IMG/VR virus record: IMGVR_UViG_2802429248_000008
Span: 1 to 26,841 of that record
Reading direction: 5' to 3' (one strand)
Origin: a virus
Lineage: Duplodnaviria > Heunggongvirae > Uroviricota > Caudoviricetes
DNA: 26,841 bases
The notes under the pieces are model-generated. The model was not told where the DNA came from. It did not search any database and was given only the letters and a program-made list of their open reading frames with translations. Positions 1,156-21,433 of this stretch are shown piece by piece (the stretch's first letter is position 1; every line of letters starts with the position of its first letter). The position numbers were made by a program, and so were the translations under genes.

Positions 1156-2134
1156 ATAAGGCATCTCCAAGGGGATTAAATCTCACCGCATCCTGCAAGT
1201 AATCCGGCGCAAGATGGGCATAAATCATCGTTGTCTGAATCTTTGCGTGCCCCAGAATTTTCTGGAGCGTCAGAATATTGCCGCCGTTCATCATGAAATG
1301 ACTGGCGAAGGTGTGGCGCAGCGCATGAACAGCCTGGCCGTCGGGAACATCAGATGCGACCGTTTTGATGACATCGCGAACCAATGGATAATCCAGCGTC
1401 GGAAACACCAGTTTCCCGCCCCGTATTTTGATCTTTTCAAACAGGCTTTCAGAAATAGGAACGGTACGGTTTTTGCTGTTCTTCGTTTTTGAAAAAGTGA
1501 TTCGACAATGAAGAACACGGCGCTGCTCCAGTGCCGCTACCTCGCCCCATCGCGCCCCGGTCGACAGAAGGATTTCGACAGCCAGCCGTTCATCGGGATT
1601 TTCAGCCAGTGCATCCAGCAACTGAACACATTCAGACTTACTCAGATATCCCATTTCGCGCTCGTTAACCTTCATTCCTTTAAGGCCTTGAACGGGGTTA
1701 TCGTTAAGAAAATGGCCGGATGAGATGAGTGCGGTAAACATCGCGCTTAACGCCCCAATCTCTCGATTTATGGTGCTGGGCTGTATCCCCTGCTCTATCC
1801 TGGACACACGTAGCTCGGTGAGCATCGTTGTATTAAGTTTATGCACGCACGGGTCATCCATTGCCTCACTCAAGCGCAGCAATTTAAGGCGCGTGTTATG
1901 CCCTGACTTCATTAGCTGGCCGTGGTATTTCCACCACAAGTCAATAAGCACTGACAGCGGACGGCGATCAATGGAGTTTCCTTTCCACTCATTGTTATGC
2001 TGTTGCGCCAGCACCCACCGCTCATATAAAACTGCATCCGATTTCGTTTTAAATTTTTTACGAATGCGTTTGCCTTTACGCCCCTCCGGGCGCATGTCAA
2101 GAAGATACCCTCCCGGAATTGATTTTATGCTCAT
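1142..2134 (-). CDS. int: Tyrosine site-specific integrase, P2 Int family
   Basis: ORF track 1142..2284; start set at ATG 2134-2132 (MSIKSIPGGYLLDMRPEGRKGKRIRKKF...), which resembles the P2 Int N-terminus as recalled. C-terminal catalytic box HALRHTFASHF ... IQTTMIYAHL. Sits downstream of and co-directional with the repressor. Confidence 0.9.
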   Translation of the reverse strand: MSIKSIPGGYLLDMRPEGRKGKRIRKKFKTKSDAVLYERWVLAQQHNNEWKGNSIDRRPLSVLIDLWWKYHGQLMKSGHNTRLKLLRLSEAMDDPCVHKLNTTMLTELRVSRIEQGIQPSTINREIGALSAMFTALISSGHFLNDNPVQGLKGMKVNEREMGYLSKSECVQLLDALAENPDERLAVEILLSTGARWGEVAALEQRRVLHCRITFSKTKNSKNRTVPISESLFEKIKIRGGKLVFPTLDYPLVRDVIKTVASDVPDGQAVHALRHTFASHFMMNGGNILTLQKILGHAKIQTTMIYAHLAPDYLQDAVRFNPLGDALYEAS

Positions 2135-2183
2135 TCGTGAAACCCCAGCGTTACAAGACCACCATGCCCCCAGCGCTCCATGA

Positions 2184-2492
2184 TTAGCCGGGCTGTGTGC
2201 CAGTCTTGCGGGGTTTTTGAGAAGGCGATGTGCTTTTTGGCCCATCAGGGGAGAGAGACGGACTGATCTGCCCAGCAGCCTCATTTGTTTTTCCCGTCAT
2301 AAGCCAATTCATGTACTTAAAAAAGCGAGGGTGATTAACAATCTTGATAAGCACTTCGCCCCCTATGTTTTCAATCCGCCCCGTTTCATAACGACGCAAA
2401 GTGCCGATAGGCACATCAATCAGGCCGCAAAATTCTTCGCGCGTTAAATCCTCTGATTCACGAATCACTCTAATTTTTTCACCGATAAGCAT
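2184..2492 (-). CDS. C: Immunity repressor, XRE/Cro-C1-type HTH (P2 C-like)
   Basis: ORF track 2184..2528; ATG at 2492-2490 (MLIGEKIRVIRESEDLTREEFCGLIDVPIGTLRRYETG). HTH near the N-terminus, about 100 aa, divergent from a cox-like gene and just upstream of int, as in P2. Confidence 0.75.
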   Translation of the reverse strand: MLIGEKIRVIRESEDLTREEFCGLIDVPIGTLRRYETGRIENIGGEVLIKIVNHPRFFKYMNWLMTGKTNEAAGQISPSLSPDGPKSTSPSQKPRKTGTQPG

Positions 2493-2496
2493 TGAC

Positions 2497-2550
2497 AGTG
2501 TTCCTATAAGTACACTAAGCTTGCGCACAAGGTGTACTTATAAGTACACC
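2497..2550. promoter_or_regulatory. Immunity-switch operator: 20-bp perfect palindrome plus a degenerate upstream copy
   Basis: ggtgtacttataagtacacc at 2531-2550 is its own reverse complement. agtgttcctataagtacact at 2497-2516 matches it at 16 of 20 positions, centre-to-centre about 34 bp. A TTGACA hexamer sits at 2492-2497. Located between the divergent C and cox-like starts. Confidence 0.6.
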
Positions 2551-2588
2551 AAGTCACAAACAACCACAGATAGCGCAGGTTATCACAC

Positions 2589-2867
2589 ATGGCAAAAGTC
2601 CTGAACACACACGAACAGGCAGACTTTGAGCGTTTAGCAGCGTTCTATCCCTACCGCGATGAGCATGGGTTACCAGTACTTGAAGAAAGCCTGAAAGATT
2701 ACGCAAAGCGTACCAACCAAGCTGTTAACACAGTGAAAAGACAGGCTGACAGAGGTTCAATTCCCATCAACCAGGATGAAAAGAACTCAAGACGCACAGT
2801 AAATCTCTTCGCTCTTTTCCTGAAAACAATCAGGAGCGCAGAAAAATACGTGCAGATGACAAAATAA
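2589..2867 (+). CDS. Cox/Apl-like early regulator or excisionase (call by position only)
   Basis: 92-aa ORF, first gene of the rightward early operon, divergent from the repressor across the operator. No recognisable motif, so the call rests on synteny with P2 cox. Confidence 0.45.
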   Translation: MAKVLNTHEQADFERLAAFYPYRDEHGLPVLEESLKDYAKRTNQAVNTVKRQADRGSIPINQDEKNSRRTVNLFALFLKTIRSAEKYVQMTK

Positions 2868-2881
2868 CGAGGTGTCATTTT

Positions 2882-3220
2882 ATGCTGAAGCAACGCCGTA
2901 ATTTTCGTACCGGAACAGAACGCCACGCTAACCGTTTCACTACCAGTGCATCACGCAGCAACATCCGCTACAGCCTGAGTGATACACACGCAACGCCGGA
3001 TGGCTACCCAGTAAAACAAATCGGCGAGCACGCCTGGCTGATTGAGAAAGCTGGAATCGTGATCCACAAATGCCCACGCAATCCGTTTACCGGAAACCGC
3101 ATTTTTGCATTGAGCTGCGGCGACAATCAATTCGGGCAGGATTTCACATTATACGAAGCACTTCGCACGGTTGATCGTCTGCTTCGTGGGCAAAGTTTTA
3201 TTAAACAGGCTGATTTATAA
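2882..3220 (+). CDS. Hypothetical early protein
   Basis: 112-aa ORF, ATG 2882 preceded by GAGG; follows the cox-like gene by 14 nt. Confidence 0.5.
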   Translation: MLKQRRNFRTGTERHANRFTTSASRSNIRYSLSDTHATPDGYPVKQIGEHAWLIEKAGIVIHKCPRNPFTGNRIFALSCGDNQFGQDFTLYEALRTVDRLLRGQSFIKQADL

Positions 3221-3230
3221 CAGGTGCTTT

Positions 3231-3509
3231 ATGACCAAAGAGCATGCACAAGGTGTATTTATCCGTTTTATTGATTTTCGCGGTGAACTGTTATTACGCG
3301 CATCAGCCATTGACGGAGTTGTTCCATCCGAAAAAAACGCAGCTACTTACGTTTATCTGAACGGTACGCGCCTGACTGTGGAGCTTCCGTACCAGACCGT
3401 ACGAGAAATCATTAGCGAAGCTGAAAAGGCACGTCAGGTTAATGGCGATGAACCATATATCGAAATTATTTGTATGGATTCAGAAGCTGAAATCCAGAAG
3501 GCAGATTAA
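3231..3509 (+). CDS. Hypothetical early protein
   Basis: ATG 3231 preceded by AGGTG, in frame with track ORF 3171..3509; 92 aa. Confidence 0.5.
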   Translation: MTKEHAQGVFIRFIDFRGELLLRASAIDGVVPSEKNAATYVYLNGTRLTVELPYQTVREIISEAEKARQVNGDEPYIEIICMDSEAEIQKAD

Positions 3510-3519
3510 AGGGTGTGCG

Positions 3520-3762
3520 ATGGACAAAGAATATAAAGCTCTTGTCAATAAAGCACTTGAGCGTTTTTATTTTCGCCTAAACACATCAGGGGCCCAGGCA
3601 GAACACGCAGCCCATGATTCATTAGCAAGGGCAATCAGAAGCCTTTATGACGTGGCTTTTTACGCTGACGATTTGGATGCAATTAACGAACTTTCCGAAC
3701 TCATCTGTGCTGCAGAATGCGGAGAACACATTGAACCGTATAAACTGGGGAATATCGTATGA
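3520..3762 (+). CDS. Hypothetical early protein
   Basis: ATG 3520 preceded by GGGTG, in frame with track ORF 3442..3762; 80 aa. Confidence 0.5.
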   Translation: MDKEYKALVNKALERFYFRLNTSGAQAEHAAHDSLARAIRSLYDVAFYADDLDAINELSELICAAECGEHIEPYKLGNIV

Positions 3763-3896
3763 GCATATTTATGTCATGGCTTGTTCTGATTATTTCGGTG
3801 TTCTGCGCTATTGGCATTATGCGAATTATTCATTCAGTGAAAAAGATTGAGCGTTTTTCTCTGACGAATAACAGCACAAATAAAACACCAGATTAA
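3759..3896 (+). CDS. Small hydrophobic protein (45 aa, one predicted TM helix)
   Basis: Below the ORF-track size cutoff. ATG 3759 overlaps the upstream stop (ATGA). Translation MSIFMSWLVLIISVFCAIGIMRIIHSVKK... with stop TAA at 3894-3896. Confidence 0.3.
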   Translation: MSIFMSWLVLIISVFCAIGIMRIIHSVKKIERFSLTNNSTNKTPD

Positions 3897-3964
3897 ATAA
3901 GAAAACGTGAAAACCATCCGAATTAGCGGAGGCATTCACACACGTAAACAACGGAGATACAAAA

Positions 3965-4375
3965 ATGAACGCAAAAGAAAAAGGCATTGTAACTGCGCTA
4001 AAAAATATATCGAAGACCGCAAACAGAGCCATTCAGGATGCAACAAATGCAGGAATGATTGGGCCTGCCACCACGGCCATGATGATAGCAAGAGTAACCG
4101 CCGAAGCAGCCGAAATTATCGAAAAACAGGATGCTGAACTAACGGTTCTCAGAACACAACCAGTCACCGGACTGGATTTGTCTAACACCGGACGCCTTAT
4201 TTACACAATTGGCTCGGAGCTACAGCAATACACCATTATCGCCGGATTACAGGATAAATACCTGATCACTCCTCACCCCATAAGGGAATCAGAAATTCTG
4301 ACAAATCTCCGCCTGATAGAGCGTTCTCACGTCGCATTCATTGATGACGCACAGCGCACCGTATTTAACGCATAG
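3965..4375 (+). CDS. Hypothetical early protein
   Basis: 136-aa ORF, ATG 3965 preceded by GGAGA. Confidence 0.55.
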   Translation: MNAKEKGIVTALKNISKTANRAIQDATNAGMIGPATTAMMIARVTAEAAEIIEKQDAELTVLRTQPVTGLDLSNTGRLIYTIGSELQQYTIIAGLQDKYLITPHPIRESEILTNLRLIERSHVAFIDDAQRTVFNA

Positions 4376-4398
4376 GGTTACTGGACAAAGGGGGCGCA

Positions 4399-4602
4399 AT
4401 GGCAATTAAGCGATTTACCGTCGTTCGTTTCACTTCCAGAGGACGTGAATACGAAGTTGACGAACGGCTGATTAAAACGCTCGACCGTCACCGTTCGCAA
4501 CCTGACGCGCATCACATTTATCTCACTGACGACACTTACTTCTGCGCCACCAACGTGGTGCAGGTGAACCTTATCCGACAGGTACAGGAGTCACGCAGAT
4601 GA
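4399..4602 (+). CDS. Hypothetical small protein
   Basis: 67-aa ORF, ATG 4399 preceded by AAAGGGGG; stop overlaps the next start (ATGA). Confidence 0.5.
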   Translation: MAIKRFTVVRFTSRGREYEVDERLIKTLDRHRSQPDAHHIYLTDDTYFCATNVVQVNLIRQVQESRR

Positions 4603-4844
4603 CCATTCTGGACTACATCGCCGCCAATCCGGGTTGTAGCGGCGGAGAAATCGCCGCAGCACTGAATACCCCAACCACAGCCATTAATGCTGAGTTACGC
4701 CGACTCTGGCGCGACGGCTTAGTCATCAGAGAAGAACGCAAAACAGGCGGTCGGTTCTCTTACCAGGTAAACCCGATGCCGTTCGGGTGTGGCAATCCAC
4801 TTACTCACATGTTTAACCAGCTACTGAAGGAAGCCAGAGCATGA
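4599..4844 (+). CDS. Small winged-helix-like DNA-binding protein
   Basis: 81 aa; N-terminal MTILDYIAANPGCSGGEIAAALNTPTTAINAELRRLWRDGLV has an HTH-like pattern. Coupled by ATGA overlaps on both sides. Confidence 0.5.
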   Translation: MTILDYIAANPGCSGGEIAAALNTPTTAINAELRRLWRDGLVIREERKTGGRFSYQVNPMPFGCGNPLTHMFNQLLKEARA

Positions 4845-5140
4845 GCACCATCAACCACCAGGAACTACGCGAACTGGCGACTGACCTGCAACGAATGGCA
4901 ACGCATCAAAAATTACTGGCGTTTCGCGCAATGCTCTCGCCATCTTCCGTGCTGGCACTGCTGGATGAGCTGGAGCACGCCAGAACCATGGCTCCAGCCA
5001 TTCGCCTGACGCTCCATCATGAAATCGCTGATTTCTGCGCACCACTGGGTTCGCCTGGTGAACCAGAAACGCCGGAAGCAATGCAACGAGAGCTACTGCA
5101 ACGCATCGACAAGGTTTTTGATTTTTTCCTTAACCAGTAA
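4841..5140 (+). CDS. Hypothetical protein
   Basis: 99-aa ORF, ATGA-coupled to the upstream gene. Confidence 0.5.
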   Translation: MSTINHQELRELATDLQRMATHQKLLAFRAMLSPSSVLALLDELEHARTMAPAIRLTLHHEIADFCAPLGSPGEPETPEAMQRELLQRIDKVFDFFLNQ

Positions 5141-5151
5141 AGGACCGCGAT

Positions 5152-5355
5152 ATGAACAAAAAGACCTGGTTTCGCGCATACATGTGGGCGCTGGTATGCG
5201 TCCTCGTTTCTCTCATTCTGTATGCAGGACTACTCCCCCGAATGATTTCATCAGACAGCTCCTTCCTGGTATTGCTGGGCATTTTCATTGCCATGCTGTA
5301 CCCGGCAGGCGTTGTTCGCCTTTTCAGTAAGTACATCAAGGAAATCAAACAATGA
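5152..5355 (+). CDS. Small two-TM membrane protein, partner of the SPFH protein
   Basis: 67 aa with two hydrophobic segments (WALVCVLVSLILYAGLL and FLVLLGIFIAMLYPAGVV); AAAGGA RBS; stop overlaps the SPFH gene start (ATGA). Confidence 0.55.
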   Translation: MNKKTWFRAYMWALVCVLVSLILYAGLLPRMISSDSSFLVLLGIFIAMLYPAGVVRLFSKYIKEIKQ

Positions 5356-6182
5356 AGAAATTCAAACTCTTTCAGATTCTCCCGCTTTTTGCCGCCATCC
5401 TGCTGGTTGGCTGCGATCGCGTTGAGCCAGGTAATGTGGGCATCAAAGTCAACAAGCTGGGCGACGACAAAGGCGTTGGCGAAGTGGTTGGCGTTGGCCG
5501 CTACTGGACTGGCTGGAATACAGAGGTTTACATCTTCCCGACCTTCAAACAAATGAAGACCTACGATGAGCCGTTCAGCTTCCAGATGAGTGACGGCACA
5601 ACCATCGGCTATCACATCGGCGTGGCTTACAAGGTTGATCCATCCAAAGTTACCACAGTGTTTCAGACCTACCGCAAAGGCGTGGATGACATTACCGACA
5701 CTGACCTGCGCCAGAAGATCGCCGATGCACTCAACCGACTGGCCAGCAAAATGACCACCGATAAGTTTATCGACGGCGGTAAGTCTGAACTGCTGGATTC
5801 AGCACTTAAAGATATTCAGGAAGAGATGACCCCCATCGGCATTCAGGTCATGAGCCTCTCTTATGTCGGCAAACCGGAATATCCGCCAACCGTTATCGAC
5901 AGCATTAACGCCAAAGTCACGGCAAACCAGAAAACCCTGCAACGCGAACAGGAAGTCAAGCAACGCGAAGCTGAAGCCAACATGCTGCGCGCAGAAGCTG
6001 CCGGACAGGCCGATGCCATTCGCACAAAAGCCCAGGCTGAAGCCGACGCCATTCGTTTACGCGGCGAAGCTCTGCGCCAGAATCCCGGCGTCATGGAGCT
6101 GGAAGCGATTAACAAATGGAACGGCACGCTGCCGCAATACATGACCAGTAACACCGCTGTTCCGTTCGTTCCCGTGAAGTAA
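5352..6182 (+). CDS. SPFH/band-7 (prohibitin/HflKC-like) domain lipoprotein
   Basis: 276 aa; lipoprotein signal with lipobox LLVGC; band-7-like core followed by an Ala/Glu/Gln/Arg-rich coiled-coil (EQEVKQREAEANMLRAEAAGQADAIRTKAQAEADAIRLRGEALRQNP), the usual SPFH architecture. Confidence 0.8.
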   Translation: MKKFKLFQILPLFAAILLVGCDRVEPGNVGIKVNKLGDDKGVGEVVGVGRYWTGWNTEVYIFPTFKQMKTYDEPFSFQMSDGTTIGYHIGVAYKVDPSKVTTVFQTYRKGVDDITDTDLRQKIADALNRLASKMTTDKFIDGGKSELLDSALKDIQEEMTPIGIQVMSLSYVGKPEYPPTVIDSINAKVTANQKTLQREQEVKQREAEANMLRAEAAGQADAIRTKAQAEADAIRLRGEALRQNPGVMELEAINKWNGTLPQYMTSNTAVPFVPVK

Positions 6183-6237
6183 TGACACCCGGCCAGTGAA
6201 ACCGCTGGCCAATAAACAAAAAGCCAGAGGACAGAAC

Positions 6238-6384
6238 ATGCACAAAGCCTTTGAACGATGGATGCGTCAGCGTTACGGCAACCGCTACGACCTGACAAGA
6301 GATGCCGATGGCTACTACTGCCGCGAAATTGTGAAACGAATGTTTGAAGTGTGGTGCCACCACCGCGGTTTATACGCCGTGTAA
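6238..6384 (+). CDS. Hypothetical small protein (48 aa)
   Basis: ATG 6238 with GAGGA 7 nt upstream; the track's GTG 6196 start lies inside the hairpin ggccag...ctggcc at 6191-6210. Confidence 0.4.
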   Translation: MHKAFERWMRQRYGNRYDLTRDADGYYCREIVKRMFEVWCHHRGLYAV

Positions 6385-6411
6385 AGCACCACCGCTAACG
6401 AGGTAAAAAAT

Positions 6412-6972
6412 ATGCATAACTTCAAACTCAAACCAATGGGTACACCTGGTGTGGCTCCGGCACATGTAAAACCATGGACACAACAGGAAGATGAAATGCT
6501 TATCTCGCTTTATCCGGAGTGCAACACGCGCCAGATAACCGAACAAATTCAACGAACCCATGACGCAGTTATGCACCGACTTAGTTTTTTACGTGATCGT
6601 GGATTGATTGGTCGCAAGAAAAAGACTCTGAGTGCAAAGGAGATCGCCTTTCTCATTGAAAACCGCCACACCAGAACGGCGCAGGAACTGGCCGCCGAGG
6701 TGGGATGCACCCATCGCACCGTACAAGCGCACCTGAATAAACGTGGTTATAGCCTGCGAAAATGCGGAGAACTCCACCACCTGACCAGATACAGCGATCA
6801 CCTGGTGGAACTGGTGACTGAACTACGTGATGAGCAGCACATGACGTTCGCCATGATAGCAAAACACATTAATCACACACTGCAAATAAAAGTCACCACT
6901 CGTACAGCACGTTTTCTTTACGGTCGCCGCACCGCCGCCGACGCCGTGCTGTACGAGCTATTACCAAACTGA
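6412..6972 (+). CDS. Putative DNA-binding protein with three HTH-like repeats
   Basis: 186 aa, ATG 6412 preceded by GAGGT. Three segments of similar pattern (WTQQEDEMLISLYPECNTRQITEQIQRTHDAV; SAKEIAFLIENRHTRTAQELAAEVGCTHRTVQAHL; HLVELVTELRDEQHMTFAMIAKHINHTL). Function inferred from pattern only. Confidence 0.5.
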   Translation: MHNFKLKPMGTPGVAPAHVKPWTQQEDEMLISLYPECNTRQITEQIQRTHDAVMHRLSFLRDRGLIGRKKKTLSAKEIAFLIENRHTRTAQELAAEVGCTHRTVQAHLNKRGYSLRKCGELHHLTRYSDHLVELVTELRDEQHMTFAMIAKHINHTLQIKVTTRTARFLYGRRTAADAVLYELLPN

Positions 6973-7086
6973 GTAATCATCATGCACACACAAAAAAACC
7001 GCTTGCCATGCCGCAATCAGTCAGGTTACATTTCCGCTGCACCTCATAAAACGGGTGCCGGGATTCTCAACCTGCTGACAAACGAA

Positions 7087-7118
7087 GCGCACAACCGCGC
7101 CAGCGGTTTTTTTGTGCG
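7087..7118 (+). terminator. Terminator-like hairpin with a 7-T run
   Basis: Inner stem ccgc/gcgg (7095-7106) followed by TTTTTTT (7107-7113); outer arms cgcacaa/ttgtgcg (7088-7094 and 7112-7118). About 115 bp past the 6412-6972 gene. Confidence 0.45.
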
Positions 7119-7168
7119 TACTGTATTGCCACGTCTTTTTCGCATCAGAATTATGGTGGGGCGTACGG

Positions 7169-7200
7169 GGCCGACTTCGGTCGGGCCGGTTTCTTCGTTT
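7169..7200 (+). terminator. Second terminator-like hairpin with UUCG loop and U-rich tail
   Basis: ggccgac-ttcg-gtcgggcc at 7169-7187, then ggtttcttcgttt. Preceded by TTGCCA (7126-7131), a 17-nt spacer and AATTAT (7149-7154), a plausible promoter. Confidence 0.45.
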
Positions 7201-7295
7201 GCCGGTGTTGAGAACCCCGTACGTCTCGCCACCCCGAGATTCTCAACTCTGGTTGGTGAGTATCCAAAAACTCACAAACGAAGAGGCCAAACACC

Positions 7296-7526
7296 ATGGC
7301 AAACCGCAAACAGCACCGCGCTATCGCGGAGCGTCGTCACATCCAGACTGAAATCAACCGCAGACTTTTCCGCGCATCACGCGTCGCGCAGATCATGCAC
7401 ATCAATATGCTGCATGAGCGCAGCCACGCGCTATCGAACATCTATTCAGCCTCTATTTTCAGCTATCTGGCGGATGATCTGCGCGAGCTTCAGCGGCTCA
7501 TCCTGCAGCAAAACAAACTCCATTAA
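7296..7526 (+). CDS. Hypothetical protein, first gene after the noncoding junction
   Basis: 76-aa ORF, ATG 7296 with AAGAGG 9 nt upstream. Confidence 0.45.
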   Translation: MANRKQHRAIAERRHIQTEINRRLFRASRVAQIMHINMLHERSHALSNIYSASIFSYLADDLRELQRLILQQNKLH

Positions 7527-7970: not shown

Positions 7971-10793
7971 ATGACGACAGAGTACATCAGGGACTGGCAA
8001 CAACCGCGCCACGCAGTAGGGCGTGAAGGAACGGGGATCCCCGCACCTGAATCCGCGCTTTCCTCCTGGCTGGATGCCTACCGGGCAGAGAACGAGCGCC
8101 GCCAGGAAAAGGCTGATGCGGTGTTCTCCGCCACGCCACTGGGCAACCTGATTAATAAAAGCCTGGACGCACAGGAAAAACAGGACAAAACCATCACTCT
8201 GGCAGGAGAAGCCAGAAGACAGGCACGCGGCGCGGTGGATGAAGCCATGGCCTCGCTGCGCCTGCTGCCGTCCTATCTGCGCGATCCGCTTATTCGCCAC
8301 CTCTCCTTCCTGCGCAAAAAACAGGAAGCCGATCGCCGGAAAGGCAAAAAGAGCTGGCAGGCAGAACGCTATGCACGCGGAACCCTGCGCAAGATATTCG
8401 ATCGCATTAACCGTGCCGACAGTCGCTGGCTGACACCGGGTTATCGCTCCCTTGCCGGACGCGAACGCCTGGACGATTTGCTTTACCTGCCGCAGCTCAA
8501 CAAACACCAGATACAGACGCTGGCCACCATGACGGCGGCGATGTTCAGCAGCACCTTCGAAAAACTCTGCGATGGCTTTGGCGCGACTGATGGTGAGCTG
8601 ACCATGGAGGTGGCACTGAAGGCGTATCAGATGCTGGCCCGCATGGCGTTACACCTGCACACCGTGCCGCCGCATTACGAAGCGCTGACAACAGACAAAG
8701 ACCGGAGGAACGAACCGGACACGGAGCTGCTGCCGGGCGCAATCCTTCGTCTGACCTGTGCGGAATGGTGGAAACGCAAACTGTGGCTGTTACGTTGCGA
8801 GTGGCGGGAAGAACAACTCCGTGCCGCCTGTCTGGTTTCCAGAAAAACATCGCCCTATCTGAGCCAGGACGCGTTAAGCGAGTTTCGCGCACAGCGCGAG
8901 AAAACACGCGATTTTCTGAAAAGTTTCATGCTGGAAAACGAAGACGGGTTCACGATTGATCTCGAGACAGTGTATTACGCGGGAGTAAGTAACCCGGTTC
9001 ACCGTAAGGCAGAAATGATGGCCACCATGAAGGGGCTGGAACTTCTGGCCGAAGCCCGTGGCGACAAAGCGGTGTTTCTGACTGTCACCTGCCCGTCAAA
9101 ATACCACGCCACAACAGAGAACGGTCATCCGAACCCCAGATGGAACGGGGCCACCATGCGCGACTCCAGCGATTACCTAGTTAACACGTTTTTTGCGGCG
9201 GTCCGCAAAAAACTGAACCGCGACGGTCTTCGCTGGTATGGCATCCGCACGGTGGAGCCTCACCATGACGGCACTGTGCACTGGCATATGATGGTCTTTG
9301 CACATCCGGAAGAAATCGACAGCATCGTGGCCATCACCCGCGATATTGCCATTCAGGAAGACCGCCACGAGCTGGGCAATGATATTACTCCGCGCTTTAA
9401 GGTGGAGTATGTCGACGGCTCAAAAGGCACACCGACCAGCTATATCGCCACCTACATCGGAAAAAACCTGGACAGCCGCGCCGTGGATGGCATCGACCCG
9501 AAAACGGGCAAGCCACGCGTTGACCACGAAACCGGAAAATCAATGGCCGAGAGCGTGGAGCGCGCCATCGGCTGGGCGCGCCTTCACCGCGTCCGCCAGT
9601 TCCAGTTCTTTGGCATCCCCTCCCGTCAGGTGTGGCGTGAACTGCGCCGCCTTGCCAGCCAGATGGCACGCAACCCGGAAGGCCCGCAACGGCTGAAGGA
9701 TGACGCAATGGATGCGGTACTCGCTGCCGCTGATGCCGGGTGTTTTGCCTCCTACATTGAAAAACAGGGTGGCGTACTTGTTCCACGCAAGGACTACCTG
9801 ATTCGCACCGCCTACGACCTCGCAGATGAGCTGAACGATTACGGCGAACAGGGCGTACAGATTTACGGGATCTGGTCACCACTCATCGGGGAATCCTCCC
9901 GTGTGTGCACGCACCCGGATAACTGGAAGCTGGTAAGACGTAAACCGGAACAGGAAGGTAGCGCCCACGAAAATGGTTTTGACCTTCAGGGCGGCCCTGC
10001 CGCCCCTTGGACCCGTGGCAATAACTGTCCCCGTGTACAGGAAACGGACAACAACGGGACAGAACAGCCGGAAGAACGGCCAGCACCGTGGCCGCAGCTT
10101 CCTGACGGCATTGAAGTGAACGAATGGATGCGCTCACTGAAACGGCACGAACGCCGGGCGCTGATGCGTTCGCTTCGTGACAAACAGGCAAAAAACAGCA
10201 GTGATGAAATGCAGAGCTGGACACAGAGCCGCAAACAGCAGCGGCCTTTGCCTGATAACCACGAATTACTCGCTAGAGAATGGCGGGAGTCTGCTGAATC
10301 TCTCGGCCTGCATATCGGTGAACAACAAATGCAGCACCTGTTACGGGGCGGCAGTCTGTACGTTGACGGCAGCATCATTGCACCGCAGGGATTTGAAATT
10401 GTACGCAAACCGGATACCCGCCCGGACAGCCGAATCACGCAGCTCTGGCAGCGCCTGAGCCGTAATCACGGTGTAAGCAGCACGGAGATCCGCCATAACC
10501 CGGTCGCCAGCTATCTGGCACAGCTGGGGGCATCAGACCCTGAAGCCGCCGCACGCCTGGCATCCACACTTCAGCAGGACCAGAACACCATGAAAACACC
10601 CGTTACCGTGCTTTCTGACATGCTGCGCGCCATCCGCGACGCAGAGCACGCACAGAGAATCAGTGAAACCACTGAACGCGCCCACCGCAAAGCAGACCTG
10701 CTGCGGGGTGGCCTGACCAGTGGAAACAAAAAACAGACAGAAACGGGACTCACGAATCCCGTAAATGAGCAAAAAACGCGCAGCGATATATGA
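7971..10793 (+). CDS. A: Rolling-circle replication initiator (P2 gpA family, HUH endonuclease), 940 aa with a long C-terminal extension
   Basis: HUH motif HHDGTVHWHMMVFAH and paired active-site tyrosines in SYIATYIGKN, characteristic of P2 A/phiX174 gpA-type initiators. About 290 C-terminal residues are low-complexity and Gln/Arg/Glu-rich. Confidence 0.85.
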   Translation: MTTEYIRDWQQPRHAVGREGTGIPAPESALSSWLDAYRAENERRQEKADAVFSATPLGNLINKSLDAQEKQDKTITLAGEARRQARGAVDEAMASLRLLPSYLRDPLIRHLSFLRKKQEADRRKGKKSWQAERYARGTLRKIFDRINRADSRWLTPGYRSLAGRERLDDLLYLPQLNKHQIQTLATMTAAMFSSTFEKLCDGFGATDGELTMEVALKAYQMLARMALHLHTVPPHYEALTTDKDRRNEPDTELLPGAILRLTCAEWWKRKLWLLRCEWREEQLRAACLVSRKTSPYLSQDALSEFRAQREKTRDFLKSFMLENEDGFTIDLETVYYAGVSNPVHRKAEMMATMKGLELLAEARGDKAVFLTVTCPSKYHATTENGHPNPRWNGATMRDSSDYLVNTFFAAVRKKLNRDGLRWYGIRTVEPHHDGTVHWHMMVFAHPEEIDSIVAITRDIAIQEDRHELGNDITPRFKVEYVDGSKGTPTSYIATYIGKNLDSRAVDGIDPKTGKPRVDHETGKSMAESVERAIGWARLHRVRQFQFFGIPSRQVWRELRRLASQMARNPEGPQRLKDDAMDAVLAAADAGCFASYIEKQGGVLVPRKDYLIRTAYDLADELNDYGEQGVQIYGIWSPLIGESSRVCTHPDNWKLVRRKPEQEGSAHENGFDLQGGPAAPWTRGNNCPRVQETDNNGTEQPEERPAPWPQLPDGIEVNEWMRSLKRHERRALMRSLRDKQAKNSSDEMQSWTQSRKQQRPLPDNHELLAREWRESAESLGLHIGEQQMQHLLRGGSLYVDGSIIAPQGFEIVRKPDTRPDSRITQLWQRLSRNHGVSSTEIRHNPVASYLAQLGASDPEAAARLASTLQQDQNTMKTPVTVLSDMLRAIRDAEHAQRISETTERAHRKADLLRGGLTSGNKKQTETGLTNPVNEQKTRSDI

Positions 10794-10869: not shown

Positions 10870-11829
10870 ATGAAAATTTGTATCGACGACGGCTCCACCA
10901 ACATCAAGCTGGCATGGACTGAGAACAGCGAACGCCGCAACGCCATCAGCCCGAACAGCTTCAAGTCGGAATGGTCTGCGCCGTTCGGTGGCTCGCAGCC
11001 TGCGAACTACATGCTTGATGGCGTGCGCTATGGTTTTGATCCGGTCAGCGATCGCTTTGTCCAGACGACCGACACGCAATACCAGTACAGCGATGTGAAT
11101 GTAATCGCCATTCACCACGCGCTGGTCAAATCAGGCATCACACCACAGGAGGTGGATGTGGTTGTCACCCTGCCACTGAGCGAGTATTTCGACACAAACG
11201 CACAGCCGGACATGGCCAACATCAACCGCAAAAAAGCGAACGTTATGCGCCCGGTGGAGTACCAGAACGGTGAGGCATTCACTATCCGTAACGTGCGGGT
11301 TATGCCTGAATCCATTCCGGCTGGCTTTAAAGCACTGGCTGACATGAGTCCGTTTGAATCCCTGCTGATTGTGGATTTAGGCGGAACCACGCTGGATGTG
11401 GCAAAGGTTCAGGGACAACTGGCAGGTATCAGCCAGGTGTTTTGCGATCCACACGTAGGCGTTTCCCTGATGGCCGATGCCGTACTGTCGGTGATGGCCA
11501 CTAACGGTATGCGTACCAGTCACCACATCGCCAATACCATTATCGAACATCGCCATGATGAAGCCTGGCTGCGCCAGCACATCCACAATGACGCGCATTA
11601 CAACAGCCTGATGGCGGTTATTCGTGAAAAGGAAGAAACACTGAAACAACGCGTGATCCGCGCGCTGGCGGGTTTTTCGGGTTACGGGCGGGTGATGGTT
11701 GTCGGTGGAGGGGCGGAGATTGTGGCACCCGCTATCCGCGAAGCCTGCGGAGTTAATGCGACTTTCATCGCGGACGGGGTGCCACAGTTTGCTCTGGTTA
11801 ATGGGCTGTACGCAATGGACAAGGAGTAA
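10870..11829 (+). CDS. parM: ParM/StbA-family actin-like partition ATPase
   Basis: 319 aa. N-terminal MKICIDDGSTNIKLAW, plus HHAL, NRKKAN, VMPESIPAG, LLIVDLGGTTLD, VGGGAEI and LVNGLY, co-linear with plasmid R1 ParM as I recall it. Confidence 0.88.
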   Translation: MKICIDDGSTNIKLAWTENSERRNAISPNSFKSEWSAPFGGSQPANYMLDGVRYGFDPVSDRFVQTTDTQYQYSDVNVIAIHHALVKSGITPQEVDVVVTLPLSEYFDTNAQPDMANINRKKANVMRPVEYQNGEAFTIRNVRVMPESIPAGFKALADMSPFESLLIVDLGGTTLDVAKVQGQLAGISQVFCDPHVGVSLMADAVLSVMATNGMRTSHHIANTIIEHRHDEAWLRQHIHNDAHYNSLMAVIREKEETLKQRVIRALAGFSGYGRVMVVGGGAEIVAPAIREACGVNATFIADGVPQFALVNGLYAMDKE

Positions 11830-20316: not shown

Positions 20317-20640
20317 GTGAGCACCATTCAAACAGGGATCACAGAGCAGGTTATTGCGTGGCTCTTTGACCACCTGCCAACGGTGTATGCAGTAGGCGCG
20401 GCAGTCAGCATTTCCGCGCTGATGAGTCTTTATGACGGACGAACACTGGTTCAGACCGTAACGGGATCGCTGGCGTGCGGCGTTCTTGCTATGGCCGTGG
20501 CCGGGTCGTTGCGCTTCTTCGGGTTTCCTGAAGATGCCGTGACGTTTATCGGCGCATCAATCGGTTTTATGGGGGCAGAGAAAGCACGCGACAAGGTTAT
20601 TGCGGCCTTTAATCGCAGGGTGAAGGAGAAGGACGAATGA
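20317..20640 (+). CDS. Holin (membrane protein at the head of the lysis cassette)
   Basis: GTG 20317 with GGGGGAG upstream; 107 aa with hydrophobic segments and a charged C-terminal tail (RRVKEKDE); directly precedes the endolysin. Start codon is uncertain. Confidence 0.55.
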   Translation: MSTIQTGITEQVIAWLFDHLPTVYAVGAAVSISALMSLYDGRTLVQTVTGSLACGVLAMAVAGSLRFFGFPEDAVTFIGASIGFMGAEKARDKVIAAFNRRVKEKDE

Positions 20641-21029
20641 GCAACACATTTAAATTCAGCAGCCGGAGCGAAAAGAATTTGCAGGGCGTAAATCCTGATC
20701 TGGTGAAAGTGACCCGACGGGCACTGGAAATCTCGGAAGTGGATTTTGGTATCACCGAAGGGTTGCGCAGCCGTTACCGCCAGAAGCAACTGGTGGCCAC
20801 GGGTAAGAGCCAGACCATGAACAGCCGCCACCTTACGGGACATGCCGTGGATGTTGTGGCTTATATCGGCAGCCAGGTGTCATGGGAATGGCCGCTGTAC
20901 GAAAAAATCGCAGCAGCATTCAGACAGGCCAGCCGGGAACTGAATATTCCGGTGGAATGGGGCGGCGACTGGAAGACCCTGAAAGACGGACCGCATTTTC
21001 AGTTACCACACGGAGCCTATCCGGCATGA
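20637..21029 (+). CDS. Endolysin, peptidase M15-type L-alanyl-D-glutamate peptidase
   Basis: 130 aa; zinc-ligand pattern SRHLTGHAVDV (His-x6-Asp) and a later DGPHFQL His, as in M15 endolysins. This is not the lysozyme found at this position in P2. Confidence 0.8.
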   Translation: MSNTFKFSSRSEKNLQGVNPDLVKVTRRALEISEVDFGITEGLRSRYRQKQLVATGKSQTMNSRHLTGHAVDVVAYIGSQVSWEWPLYEKIAAAFRQASRELNIPVEWGGDWKTLKDGPHFQLPHGAYPA

Positions 21030-21433
21030 AGCTCTGGCCCACGCTTGGCGTCGCTTTCCTTCTGATTGCCGGATGGGGAACATCCATGCGTCTGTCGTGG
21101 TCGCTGGGCCGGGAGAACGCCAGAAATGAAGCGCAGGCCAGCACCCTGAAAAGTACCGCCGACACCCTGAATATCATCAGCGCCGGGGTACAGGATATGC
21201 AGCAGGTGCTGGCGCAACTCCGCGTGGAAAATCAGCAACGCAATCAGGACGGAGAGGCAAGACGTGAACAGCTACGCAACGATATTGCAAAAGATGAATG
21301 CGCCCACGCTTTGCCTGACGCTCGTTTTACTGACAGGCTGCGCAGGCACGCAGAACGCGCCACTGCCAGCGCCGTCAGTCCGGCTTATACCGCAGACGCT
21401 GACCATACCGGTAACGCCTCCCCCATTCCCTGA
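21026..21433 (+). CDS. i-spanin (Rz/LysB-like)
   Basis: ATG 21026 overlapping the endolysin stop; N-terminal TM segment (LWPTLGVAFLLIAGW) then a coiled-coil periplasmic domain. Confidence 0.7.
   Translation: MKLWPTLGVAFLLIAGWGTSMRLSWSLGRENARNEAQASTLKSTADTLNIISAGVQDMQQVLAQLRVENQQRNQDGEARREQLRNDIAKDECAHALPDARFTDRLRRHAERATASAVSPAYTADADHTGNASPIP

Follow-up and report, generated by a model that had tools for sequence, protein, structure and literature searches.

What could a P2-like phage gain from an SPFH (Band 7) lipoprotein that is encoded next to a small membrane protein? The question is raised by a stretch of 26,841 nucleotides of viral DNA (IMG/VR record IMGVR_UViG_2802429248_000008, positions 1 to 26,841; called the window in the following), for which such a gene pair had been predicted at 5152-6182 from the sequence. 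Both open reading frames (ORFs) are present there, and the product of the larger one shows a Band_7 profile match as well as a lipobox. The window is about 96% identical to Escherichia phage P88 (Xuanwuvirus, Peduoviridae, P2-like) across 78% of its first 25 kb, and by sequence the window phage is a P88-like, P2-like Xuanwuvirus. Its pair corresponds to P88 gp11/gp12 (NC_026014; 97.6% nucleotide identity) and both genes are already known, as they are annotated in P88, with gp11 as 'membrane protein' and gp12 as 'lipoprotein' (in GenBank as 'SPFH domain protein' with a 'serine protease' note), and belong to PHROGs 1130 and 200. These annotations leave the two genes unlinked. What we did not find described before are the conserved partner that is not an NfeD protein, its natural fusions to the SPFH protein, the predicted placement of the latter on the periplasmic side by a lipid anchor and the spread of the cassette, as a mobile unit, over three phage lineages.

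Conserved pairing of the two genes

The conservation of the pairing is our main new result. We scanned 93 loci by script, comprising the window, P88, phiP27, RCS47, 80 IMG/VR contigs and nine of the 11 loci from species-representative genomes, two being left out as their SPFH start was unrecognisable. A two-transmembrane (two-TM) ORF of 55-78 amino acids (aa) abuts or overlaps the SPFH start in 90 of the 93 loci. The overlap is 4 nt long in 63 of the 93, the window included, and most of the others show a 20-nt overlap or a 2-nt gap; the ATGA-type 4-nt overlap also occurs in distant prophages. In the window this overlap lies at 5352-5355 (+), exactly as predicted, and is formed by the partner stop TGA (5353-5355) and the SPFH start ATG (5352-5354). 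Overlapping codons of this kind are those expected of translationally coupled genes and coupling can be predicted on this basis. The three exceptions are two IS1 insertions, one in Shigella flexneri and one in an E. coli chromosome, and one truncation. At the two insertion loci (L085, 4449-4972, and L086) the IS1 lies immediately 5' of the SPFH gene and replaces the partner, so that the SPFH lipoprotein gene is left as an orphan, probably within a prophage that is decaying.

Two phages whose reference annotations list the SPFH gene without a partner gene turned out to carry one. In phiP27 (NC_003356) an unannotated two-TM ORF of 62 aa is found just before the SPFH gene (L002, 2759-2947) with the same ATGA overlap, and the P1-like RCS47 (NC_042128) has an unannotated two-TM ORF of 78 aa (L003, 2730-2966) which overlaps the SPFH gene by 20 nt. 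Both partners are only 22-45% identical to that of the window and still keep Y10, Y24, P29, I32, S33, V40, G43, A47 and P51. The RCS47-type overlap in the same interval of L003 includes a run of seven A (AATGAAAAAAACG). One protein representative, P0001 (347 aa, 8 member sequences), is apparently an in-frame partner-SPFH fusion, consistent with the loss of one A from this run, and may have arisen by sequencing error, mutation or slippage.

In order to cover more distant relatives, six loci with 40-48% identity were sampled, from Vibrio parahaemolyticus, Nevskia ramosa, Epibacterium ulvae, Dyella halodurans, Cohaesibacter sp. and one uncultured phage contig; five are in (pro)phage settings and one is chromosomal. 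All six possess a two-TM ORF of 62-75 aa upstream of the SPFH gene, overlapping its start by 1-14 nt in four cases. The family motif of the partner, P-x-[LFM]-[IVM]-S-[SA], is found in five of the six, with a looser form, P-V-L-M-S-S, in Nevskia.

Nature has also joined the two proteins covalently. An exhaustive HMMER search of 1.84 billion representatives gave 2906 relatives at E<=1e-3, 221 of them at E<=1e-30, and many of the best ones are 330-390 aa long. These begin with a two-TM domain that carries the loop motif and continue through a linker and a third hydrophobic segment, which has a lipobox-like Cys at its end, to the SPFH part (for example P0144, P0150, P0155, P0156, P0159, P0169, P0188 and P0192). 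P0149 differs in having the two-TM domain as a C-terminal fusion. The linker of P0155 between TM2 and TM3 is highly charged and thus fits a cytoplasmic location, as would be expected for an N-in/C-in hairpin followed by a periplasmic SPFH domain. Fusions in both orders and the conserved adjacency are together strong comparative grounds for regarding partner and SPFH protein as one functional unit, probably in a 1:1 ratio, and the comparison of sequences strongly supports the small protein as a dedicated operon partner of the SPFH protein.

The partner gene itself (5152..5355, +; equivalent to P88 gp11) encodes 67 aa and is preceded by a presumed Shine-Dalgarno sequence, AAGGA (5140-5144, +), located 7 nt before the ATG. 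Hydropathy windows and reading of the sequence predict TM helix 1 at about residues 9-29 (5176..5238, +), and hydropathy windows place TM helix 2 at about residues 38-58 (5263..5325, +). Between them lies the short, predicted periplasmic loop P29-R-M-I-S-S-D-S-S37 (5236..5262, +) with the family motif. Positive residues are found at both ends (K3, K4 and R8; R56, K60, K63 and K66). Because of the two hydrophobic segments, the positive ends and the short loop, the partner is predicted to be an N-in/C-in hairpin of the inner membrane. P29, I32 and S33 of the loop and G43, A47 and P51 of TM2 are invariant in the partner alignment, and the loop motif recurs in the partners from Vibrio, Nevskia, Epibacterium, Dyella and Cohaesibacter as well as in the N-terminal part of the fused proteins. 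The protein has no Pfam family; it matches PHROG 1130 'membrane protein' with an E-value of 1.3e-22. This match, the dN/dS of 0.12-0.32 (in the four pairs having synonymous differences) and the retention in 90 of 93 loci show that the ORF is a real gene.

Two identities were considered for the partner and rejected. An NfeD protein, which the original prediction had brought in by likening the arrangement to NfeD-SPFH pairs, would need a soluble domain, and a protein of 67 aa with two TM helices and only about 9 residues after TM2 leaves no room for one; the proposed profile search with NfeD (PF01957) gave no match at E<=1 for the partner of the window and 10 diverse partners or fusion N-termini (11 sequences). 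A class II lysis holin of the phage is the second one. The window has a separate lysis cassette with holin/anti-holin, endolysin and DUF2570 genes at 20317-21430, about 15 kb from the partner gene with its place among early genes, and two-TM size and shape alone are not diagnostic of a holin.

Fold and relatives of the SPFH lipoprotein

The SPFH gene (5352..6182, +; equivalent to P88 gp12) encodes 276 aa, and its Shine-Dalgarno sequence AAGGA (5338-5342, +) lies inside the partner coding sequence, 9 nt before the ATG. The N-terminus is a predicted lipoprotein signal peptide (5352..5414, +), MKKFKLFQILPLFAAILLVG, which starts with MKKFK followed by the h region and would be cleaved before C21-D22 (codons 5412-5414 and 5415-5417). 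Its lipobox L18-V19-G20-C21 fits the pattern [LVI][ASTVI][GAS]C with LVGC, and the protein matches PHROG 200 'lipoprotein' with an E-value of 2e-112. Among 16 close relatives the conservation of C21 and D22 is at least 90%, and C21 reaches this level among 62 diverse relatives as well. Aspartate at position +2 after the lipidated cysteine is the classical residue for retention in the inner membrane of E. coli, as such lipoproteins avoid the Lol system. Asp22 agrees with this rule and should therefore keep the protein in the inner membrane of enterobacteria.

The Band 7 profile search that had been suggested as a check gave a clear result, as Pfam PF01145 covers residues 23-209 (5418..5978, +) with 108.4 bits against a gathering cutoff of 23.6 (E 5.7e-31). 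Band_7 is also the sole Pfam match above the gathering score. No protease family reached its cutoff, and the label 'serine protease', which the protein bears in many phage records, can be rejected. The same holds for orthology to HflK or HflC, as the NCBIfam models TIGR01933 and TIGR01932 gave 23.5 and 25.7 bits against cutoffs of 159.4 and 134.4, respectively. The closest solved chains by sequence are prohibitin-1 (E 6e-10), HflK (2e-7) and QmcA (4e-7). SPFH proteins are frequent in phages and giant viruses, and some relatives carry the NCBI name 'prohibitin family protein'.

An AlphaFold2 monomer model was built from 62 sequences and has a pLDDT of 87.4. It shows the signal helix, a beta-rich SPFH1 and an alpha/beta SPFH2 subdomain and a helix that spans about 75 residues (179-255), while the tail is modelled with low confidence. 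The long Ala/Glu-rich helix was assigned by DSSP on the model to residues 179-243 and 245-255 (5886..6116, +); P0111 and P0119 represent a variant with an 11-residue insertion in it. In the tail (6114..6179, +), with the conserved pattern K-W-N-G-x-L-P ... P-F, W256 and G258 never vary among 55 representatives of 34-61% identity, and P261 hardly does. We regard the tail as a candidate cap or oligomerisation segment, and its pLDDT of 49-71 in the monomer model is compatible with a segment that becomes ordered in an oligomer. Foldseek aligned the model in full length and with probability 1.0 to HflK/HflC, prohibitin, erlin, stomatin, flotillin and QmcA (E down to 5e-14), all of which form membrane cages, and in the model the long helix corresponds to the coiled-coil wall helices of these cages. 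Thus the protein is closest to prohibitin by sequence, and by fold it matches all cage-forming SPFH proteins.

How does the phage pair compare to known SPFH systems? With HflK/HflC, which form a cage around FtsH in E. coli, it shares the architecture of SPFH1, SPFH2 and coiled coil, the adjacent gene pair and the SPFH location on the periplasmic side of the inner membrane, the latter being established for HflK/C and predicted from the signal peptide for the phage protein. In contrast to the two SPFH paralogues HflK and HflC, the phage system has one SPFH subunit and a hairpin without SPFH domain, and its SPFH protein would be anchored by a lipid instead of an N-terminal TM helix. A small membrane protein next to the SPFH gene, occasionally fused to it, is also the hallmark of the SPFH-NfeD operons (QmcA-YbbJ, YqiK-YqiJ, FloA-NfeD and PH1511-PH1510), and in the QmcA-YbbJ structure (8z5g) the partner is located inside the cage in a 1:1 ratio. 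Unlike these operons, the phage cassette has a partner without NfeD domain which comes first and overlaps by its codons, and a lipoprotein predicted to face the periplasm, whereas their SPFH proteins face the cytoplasm. The proposed likeness to NfeD-SPFH or HflK/C-type pairs can therefore be kept as far as a dedicated operon partner is concerned, which adjacency and fusions strongly support, and has to be given up for the identity of both proteins. Another relative by description is the prohibitin-like group SPFH4 of Hinderhofer et al. 2009 (PMC2636767), for which a periplasmic location was predicted and neither NfeD nor another operon partner was found; the phage protein resembles it in its predicted periplasmic orientation and in having prohibitin-1 as the best solved sequence match, and differs by the presence of a partner. 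Our search of the literature gave no functional study of a phage SPFH protein, none on this cassette and none linking SPFH to an anti-phage function; a publication on a Vibrio prophage (PMC7756092) proved to have no bearing on it.

Mobility of the cassette and its proposed function

The cassette is carried by P2-like, P1-like and phiP27/Stx-type phages as accessory, mobile two-gene cargo. The mature part of the SPFH coding sequence is 82-98% nucleotide-identical among the window/P88-like, phiP27-like and RCS47/P1-like versions. Upstream of the Cys21 codon (5409-5422 in the window and the equivalent sites in L002 and L003) the identity falls sharply to about 0.4-0.6, so that diverged membrane heads, each made of partner and signal peptide, sit on a nearly identical periplasmic body, with a mosaic or recombination joint at Cys21. 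The Xuanwuvirus 520873 (L100) is without the pair at this slot, and PhiR44_2 (L101) has an unrelated ORF of 205 aa there. The region between the Ead/Ea22-like and the replication genes of Xuanwuvirus (window 5152-7296) is in fact a variable cargo slot, which holds the SPFH pair, a 62-aa ORF and a helix-turn-helix (HTH) regulator in the window and is empty in 520873. In P1-like phages the position of the cargo is flanked by upl and the tRNA/ban genes and belongs to the C1-controlled ban operon. P1 carries tciA-tciB-tciC (L102, 14234-14930) where RCS47-type phages have the SPFH pair (L003, 2730-3774), and the pair and the TerB-like tciABC genes appear to be alternative cargo of P1-like phage-plasmids. 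As the GC content of the cassette (0.48-0.55) is inside the range of its neighbours (0.40-0.60 across the stretch), it receives no support as a compositionally foreign moron.

A match is present in 715 of 5426 complete E. coli genomes (about 13%), Stx-converting phages included, and about half of the matching places in E. coli are on plasmids, which are probably P1-like phage-plasmids. The family is also found in marine and soil bacteria. The close family is sporadic, as the scan of species-representative genomes gave only 11 species representatives. One fragment of an SPFH lipoprotein (L094, 5001-5252; 65% identity over 82 residues, with a bacterial-type lipobox) is located on a contig labelled 'MAG: archaeon' and is probably a bacterial or phage sequence binned into an archaeal metagenome-assembled genome.

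The early placement that had been claimed for the pair is borne out by synteny. It lies downstream of the Cox-like gene (2589-2864, plus strand), which is preceded by the gene of a C-like HTH repressor (2184-2525, minus strand), within a densely packed same-strand array that starts with the Cox-like gene (2589) and reaches as far as gene A for the replication endonuclease (7971), and by synteny with P2 and P88 it would belong to the early (Cox) transcription unit. In phiP27 and Stx2 phages the pair is close to xis/int. Together with the ban operon of the P1-like phages this amounts to an apparently early, repressor-controlled placement in all three lineages examined. Consensus scans of the window, phiP27 and RCS47 for a dedicated promoter or terminator of the cassette yielded no candidate above chance level, although such scans cannot exclude one, and none was found by the consensus promoter scan of the plus strand of the window (1392-7003).

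From these results we propose that the self-contained accessory cassette encodes both subunits of an SPFH complex that assembles on the periplasmic side of the inner membrane. Domains, lipobox and fold, like the conserved pairing, the fusions and the mobility, are shown by the data above; we infer topology, cage, stoichiometry, timing and client, and consider the proposal as a whole evenly poised between right and wrong. The 67-aa partner would insert as N-in/C-in helical hairpin with its conserved loop, P-x-L/M-I/V-S-S/A, facing the periplasm, and the 276-aa SPFH protein would be exported, lipid-modified at Cys21 and, in enterobacteria, kept in the inner membrane via Asp at +2. Like the solved SPFH proteins it might then oligomerise via its long coiled-coil helix and its C-terminal tail into a ring or cage, whose integral-membrane subunit would be the hairpin, probably in a 1:1 ratio, in place of the N-terminal TM helices or NfeD proteins found elsewhere. 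The cassette would be transcribed with the early genes, namely those of the Cox operon in the window phage, of the ban operon under C1 control in P1-like phages and, in phiP27, of the early-left arm beside xis/int. The complex could then act on the host inner membrane during lytic development and fence off a membrane patch with its client proteins. The leading candidate for a client is an FtsH-like protease or another periplasm-exposed inner-membrane protein, the former by analogy, because the closest characterised relatives prohibitin, HflK/C and QmcA all partner FtsH-type proteases.

Several points weigh against this proposal. Full-length structural alignments give 13-18% identity to HflK/C and prohibitin, which is a likeness at superfamily level and far below the NCBIfam cutoffs, so that homology does not reveal the client. 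The cage is an extrapolation from the model of a monomer, and the consensus promoter scans neither exclude nor show a dedicated promoter. Ser, Thr or Gly occupies position +2 in many distant relatives, and retention by the E. coli rule is thus not universal. P2-like and P1-like phages are not known to have an FtsH-dependent regulator. Finally, the Dyella halodurans pair (L103, 6796-7870) is found by itself on the chromosome, in surroundings that do not resemble a prophage, so that the module is not a phage function by nature. Its neighbours are a BlaI-like regulator, FtsX permeases, a hemerythrin and a ribonucleotide reductase, and a TIR-TPR gene is found about 7 kb away.

Protease modulation, membrane microdomains and exclusion, all of which had been named in the original prediction, are possible functions of the cassette. 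The lambda-type logic of HflKC, FtsH and CII behind the first of them does not transfer directly, as this P2-like phage has a C/Cox switch and the cassette also occurs in P1-like and phiP27/Stx-type phages. Among the functions considered we rank the sequestration of inner-membrane clients first, followed by envelope exclusion or abortive infection, non-specific membrane protection and a host-directed lipoprotein.

Exclusion is the strongest competitor, though in our opinion unlikely. Here the complex would block DNA entry or envelope steps of a second phage, or the cage would hold the partner, which has the shape of a class II holin, inactive until superinfection triggers depolarisation. The model for such a block is T4 Imm and Sp, which exclude a second phage during lytic growth. 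Several features of the cassette would suit an exclusion system: it occupies a variable slot as accessory cargo, which phages of otherwise similar make-up lack or have replaced, and it is nearly unchanged across unrelated temperate phage lineages; its proteins are predicted to be located in the envelope; in P1-like phages it takes the place of tciABC, annotated by homology as tellurite/colicin-resistance genes; and the size, the N-in/C-in two-TM layout and the charged C-terminus of the partner are typical of small membrane effectors. On the other hand, the apparent repressor control of early operons in three lineages and the lack of a detectable promoter of its own make it probable that the cassette is silent in lysogens, where classical prophage defence acts. 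The many partner-SPFH fusions are awkward for an effector that has to be released. A known defence system finds no support either: among the PADLOC-DB v2 defence models the SPFH protein has no match and the partner only one at chance level (E 0.0078, 21 residues), and the literature searched gave no link between SPFH proteins and anti-phage function.

We think it improbable that the cage serves as a general membrane protectant, which would stabilise the inner membrane and its proteins, preserve the proton-motive force and prevent premature lysis during replication, without a specific client and by analogy to the roles proposed for flotillin-NfeD and PspA-type systems. The inferred early lytic timing would suit such a role, and the stand-alone chromosomal pair of Dyella suggests a housekeeping-type membrane function borrowed by phages. 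Publications such as PMC11222466 and PMC10434171 link bacterial SPFH proteins to the stabilisation of unfolded membrane proteins and to stress tolerance. The chaperone-like role is described for the cytoplasm-facing flotillin and QmcA, however, in contrast to the periplasmic orientation predicted here, and closely related phages (520873, PhiR44_2) dispense with the cassette.

A lipoprotein for lysogenic conversion that acts on the animal host of the bacterium is highly improbable: the precedent, the HflK/C-like prophage protein PM0222 of Pasteurella multocida, is described as a virulence factor that is reportedly released in outer-membrane vesicles and triggers TLR1/2 signalling (PMC9872710), and the cassette does occur in Stx-converting phages and in the E. 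coli genomes counted above, but PM0222 is likened here by description and not by sequence, a TLR2 phenotype is non-specific because any triacylated lipoprotein activates TLR2, Asp at +2 predicts inner-membrane retention and not surface exposure, the placement resembles an early operon and the family extends to marine and soil bacteria.

Returning to the inner-membrane complex, its boldest version would be an unrecognised class of phage-borne two-component SPFH cages, in which a prohibitin-like, lipid-anchored shell in the periplasm gates a holin-shaped two-TM subunit or captures the host FtsH. This version is a long shot. If true, unrelated phages would share a portable switch over inner-membrane integrity or proteolysis, useful for excluding competitors or for stabilising short-lived regulators in the early lytic phase. 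Apart from that, the family offers a compact and portable two-gene version of an SPFH system, with a non-NfeD partner, a predicted lipid anchor replacing the TM helix and fusions that hint at the way in which the parts are assembled. Given the share of complete E. coli genomes with a match, whatever the cassette may do to membrane proteolysis, superinfection or envelope integrity would be widespread. The annotation can also be corrected now: 'serine protease' is a wrong label for the SPFH protein, and several reference phage records lack the partner gene.

Other genes and RNAs of the region

The genes upstream of the pair are separated by minute gaps or overlaps and, apart from the repressor gene, are all on the plus strand. 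The Cox-like gene is followed by genes for DUF4761 and DUF4754 proteins and two genes of unknown function, and then by a gene for a MarR-type winged HTH protein (4599-4841) and the Ead/Ea22-like gene (4841-5137), whose stop TAA (5138-5140) comes immediately before the Shine-Dalgarno sequence of the partner gene. Downstream, the 62-aa ORF follows the SPFH gene and precedes the gene of the HTH regulator of PHROG 323 (6412-6969), which is followed by the 'derepression protein' gene (7296-7526) and gene A (7971-10793).

Directly 5' of the 'derepression protein' gene, Rfam models identified the Hfq-binding small RNA isrK (7039-7113, +; 62 bits) and a C4 antisense RNA (7149-7236, +; 79 bits), both above the gathering score, and a terminator-like hairpin at 7093-7108 forms the 3' terminus of isrK. 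This region corresponds to an antisense-RNA immunity element, P1/P7-immI-like or P4-like, within a P2-like phage. The replication gene is followed, as in P88, by a ParM-type plasmid segregation gene and a partition gene (10870-11829, +), which are unusual for a P2-like phage that carries an integrase.

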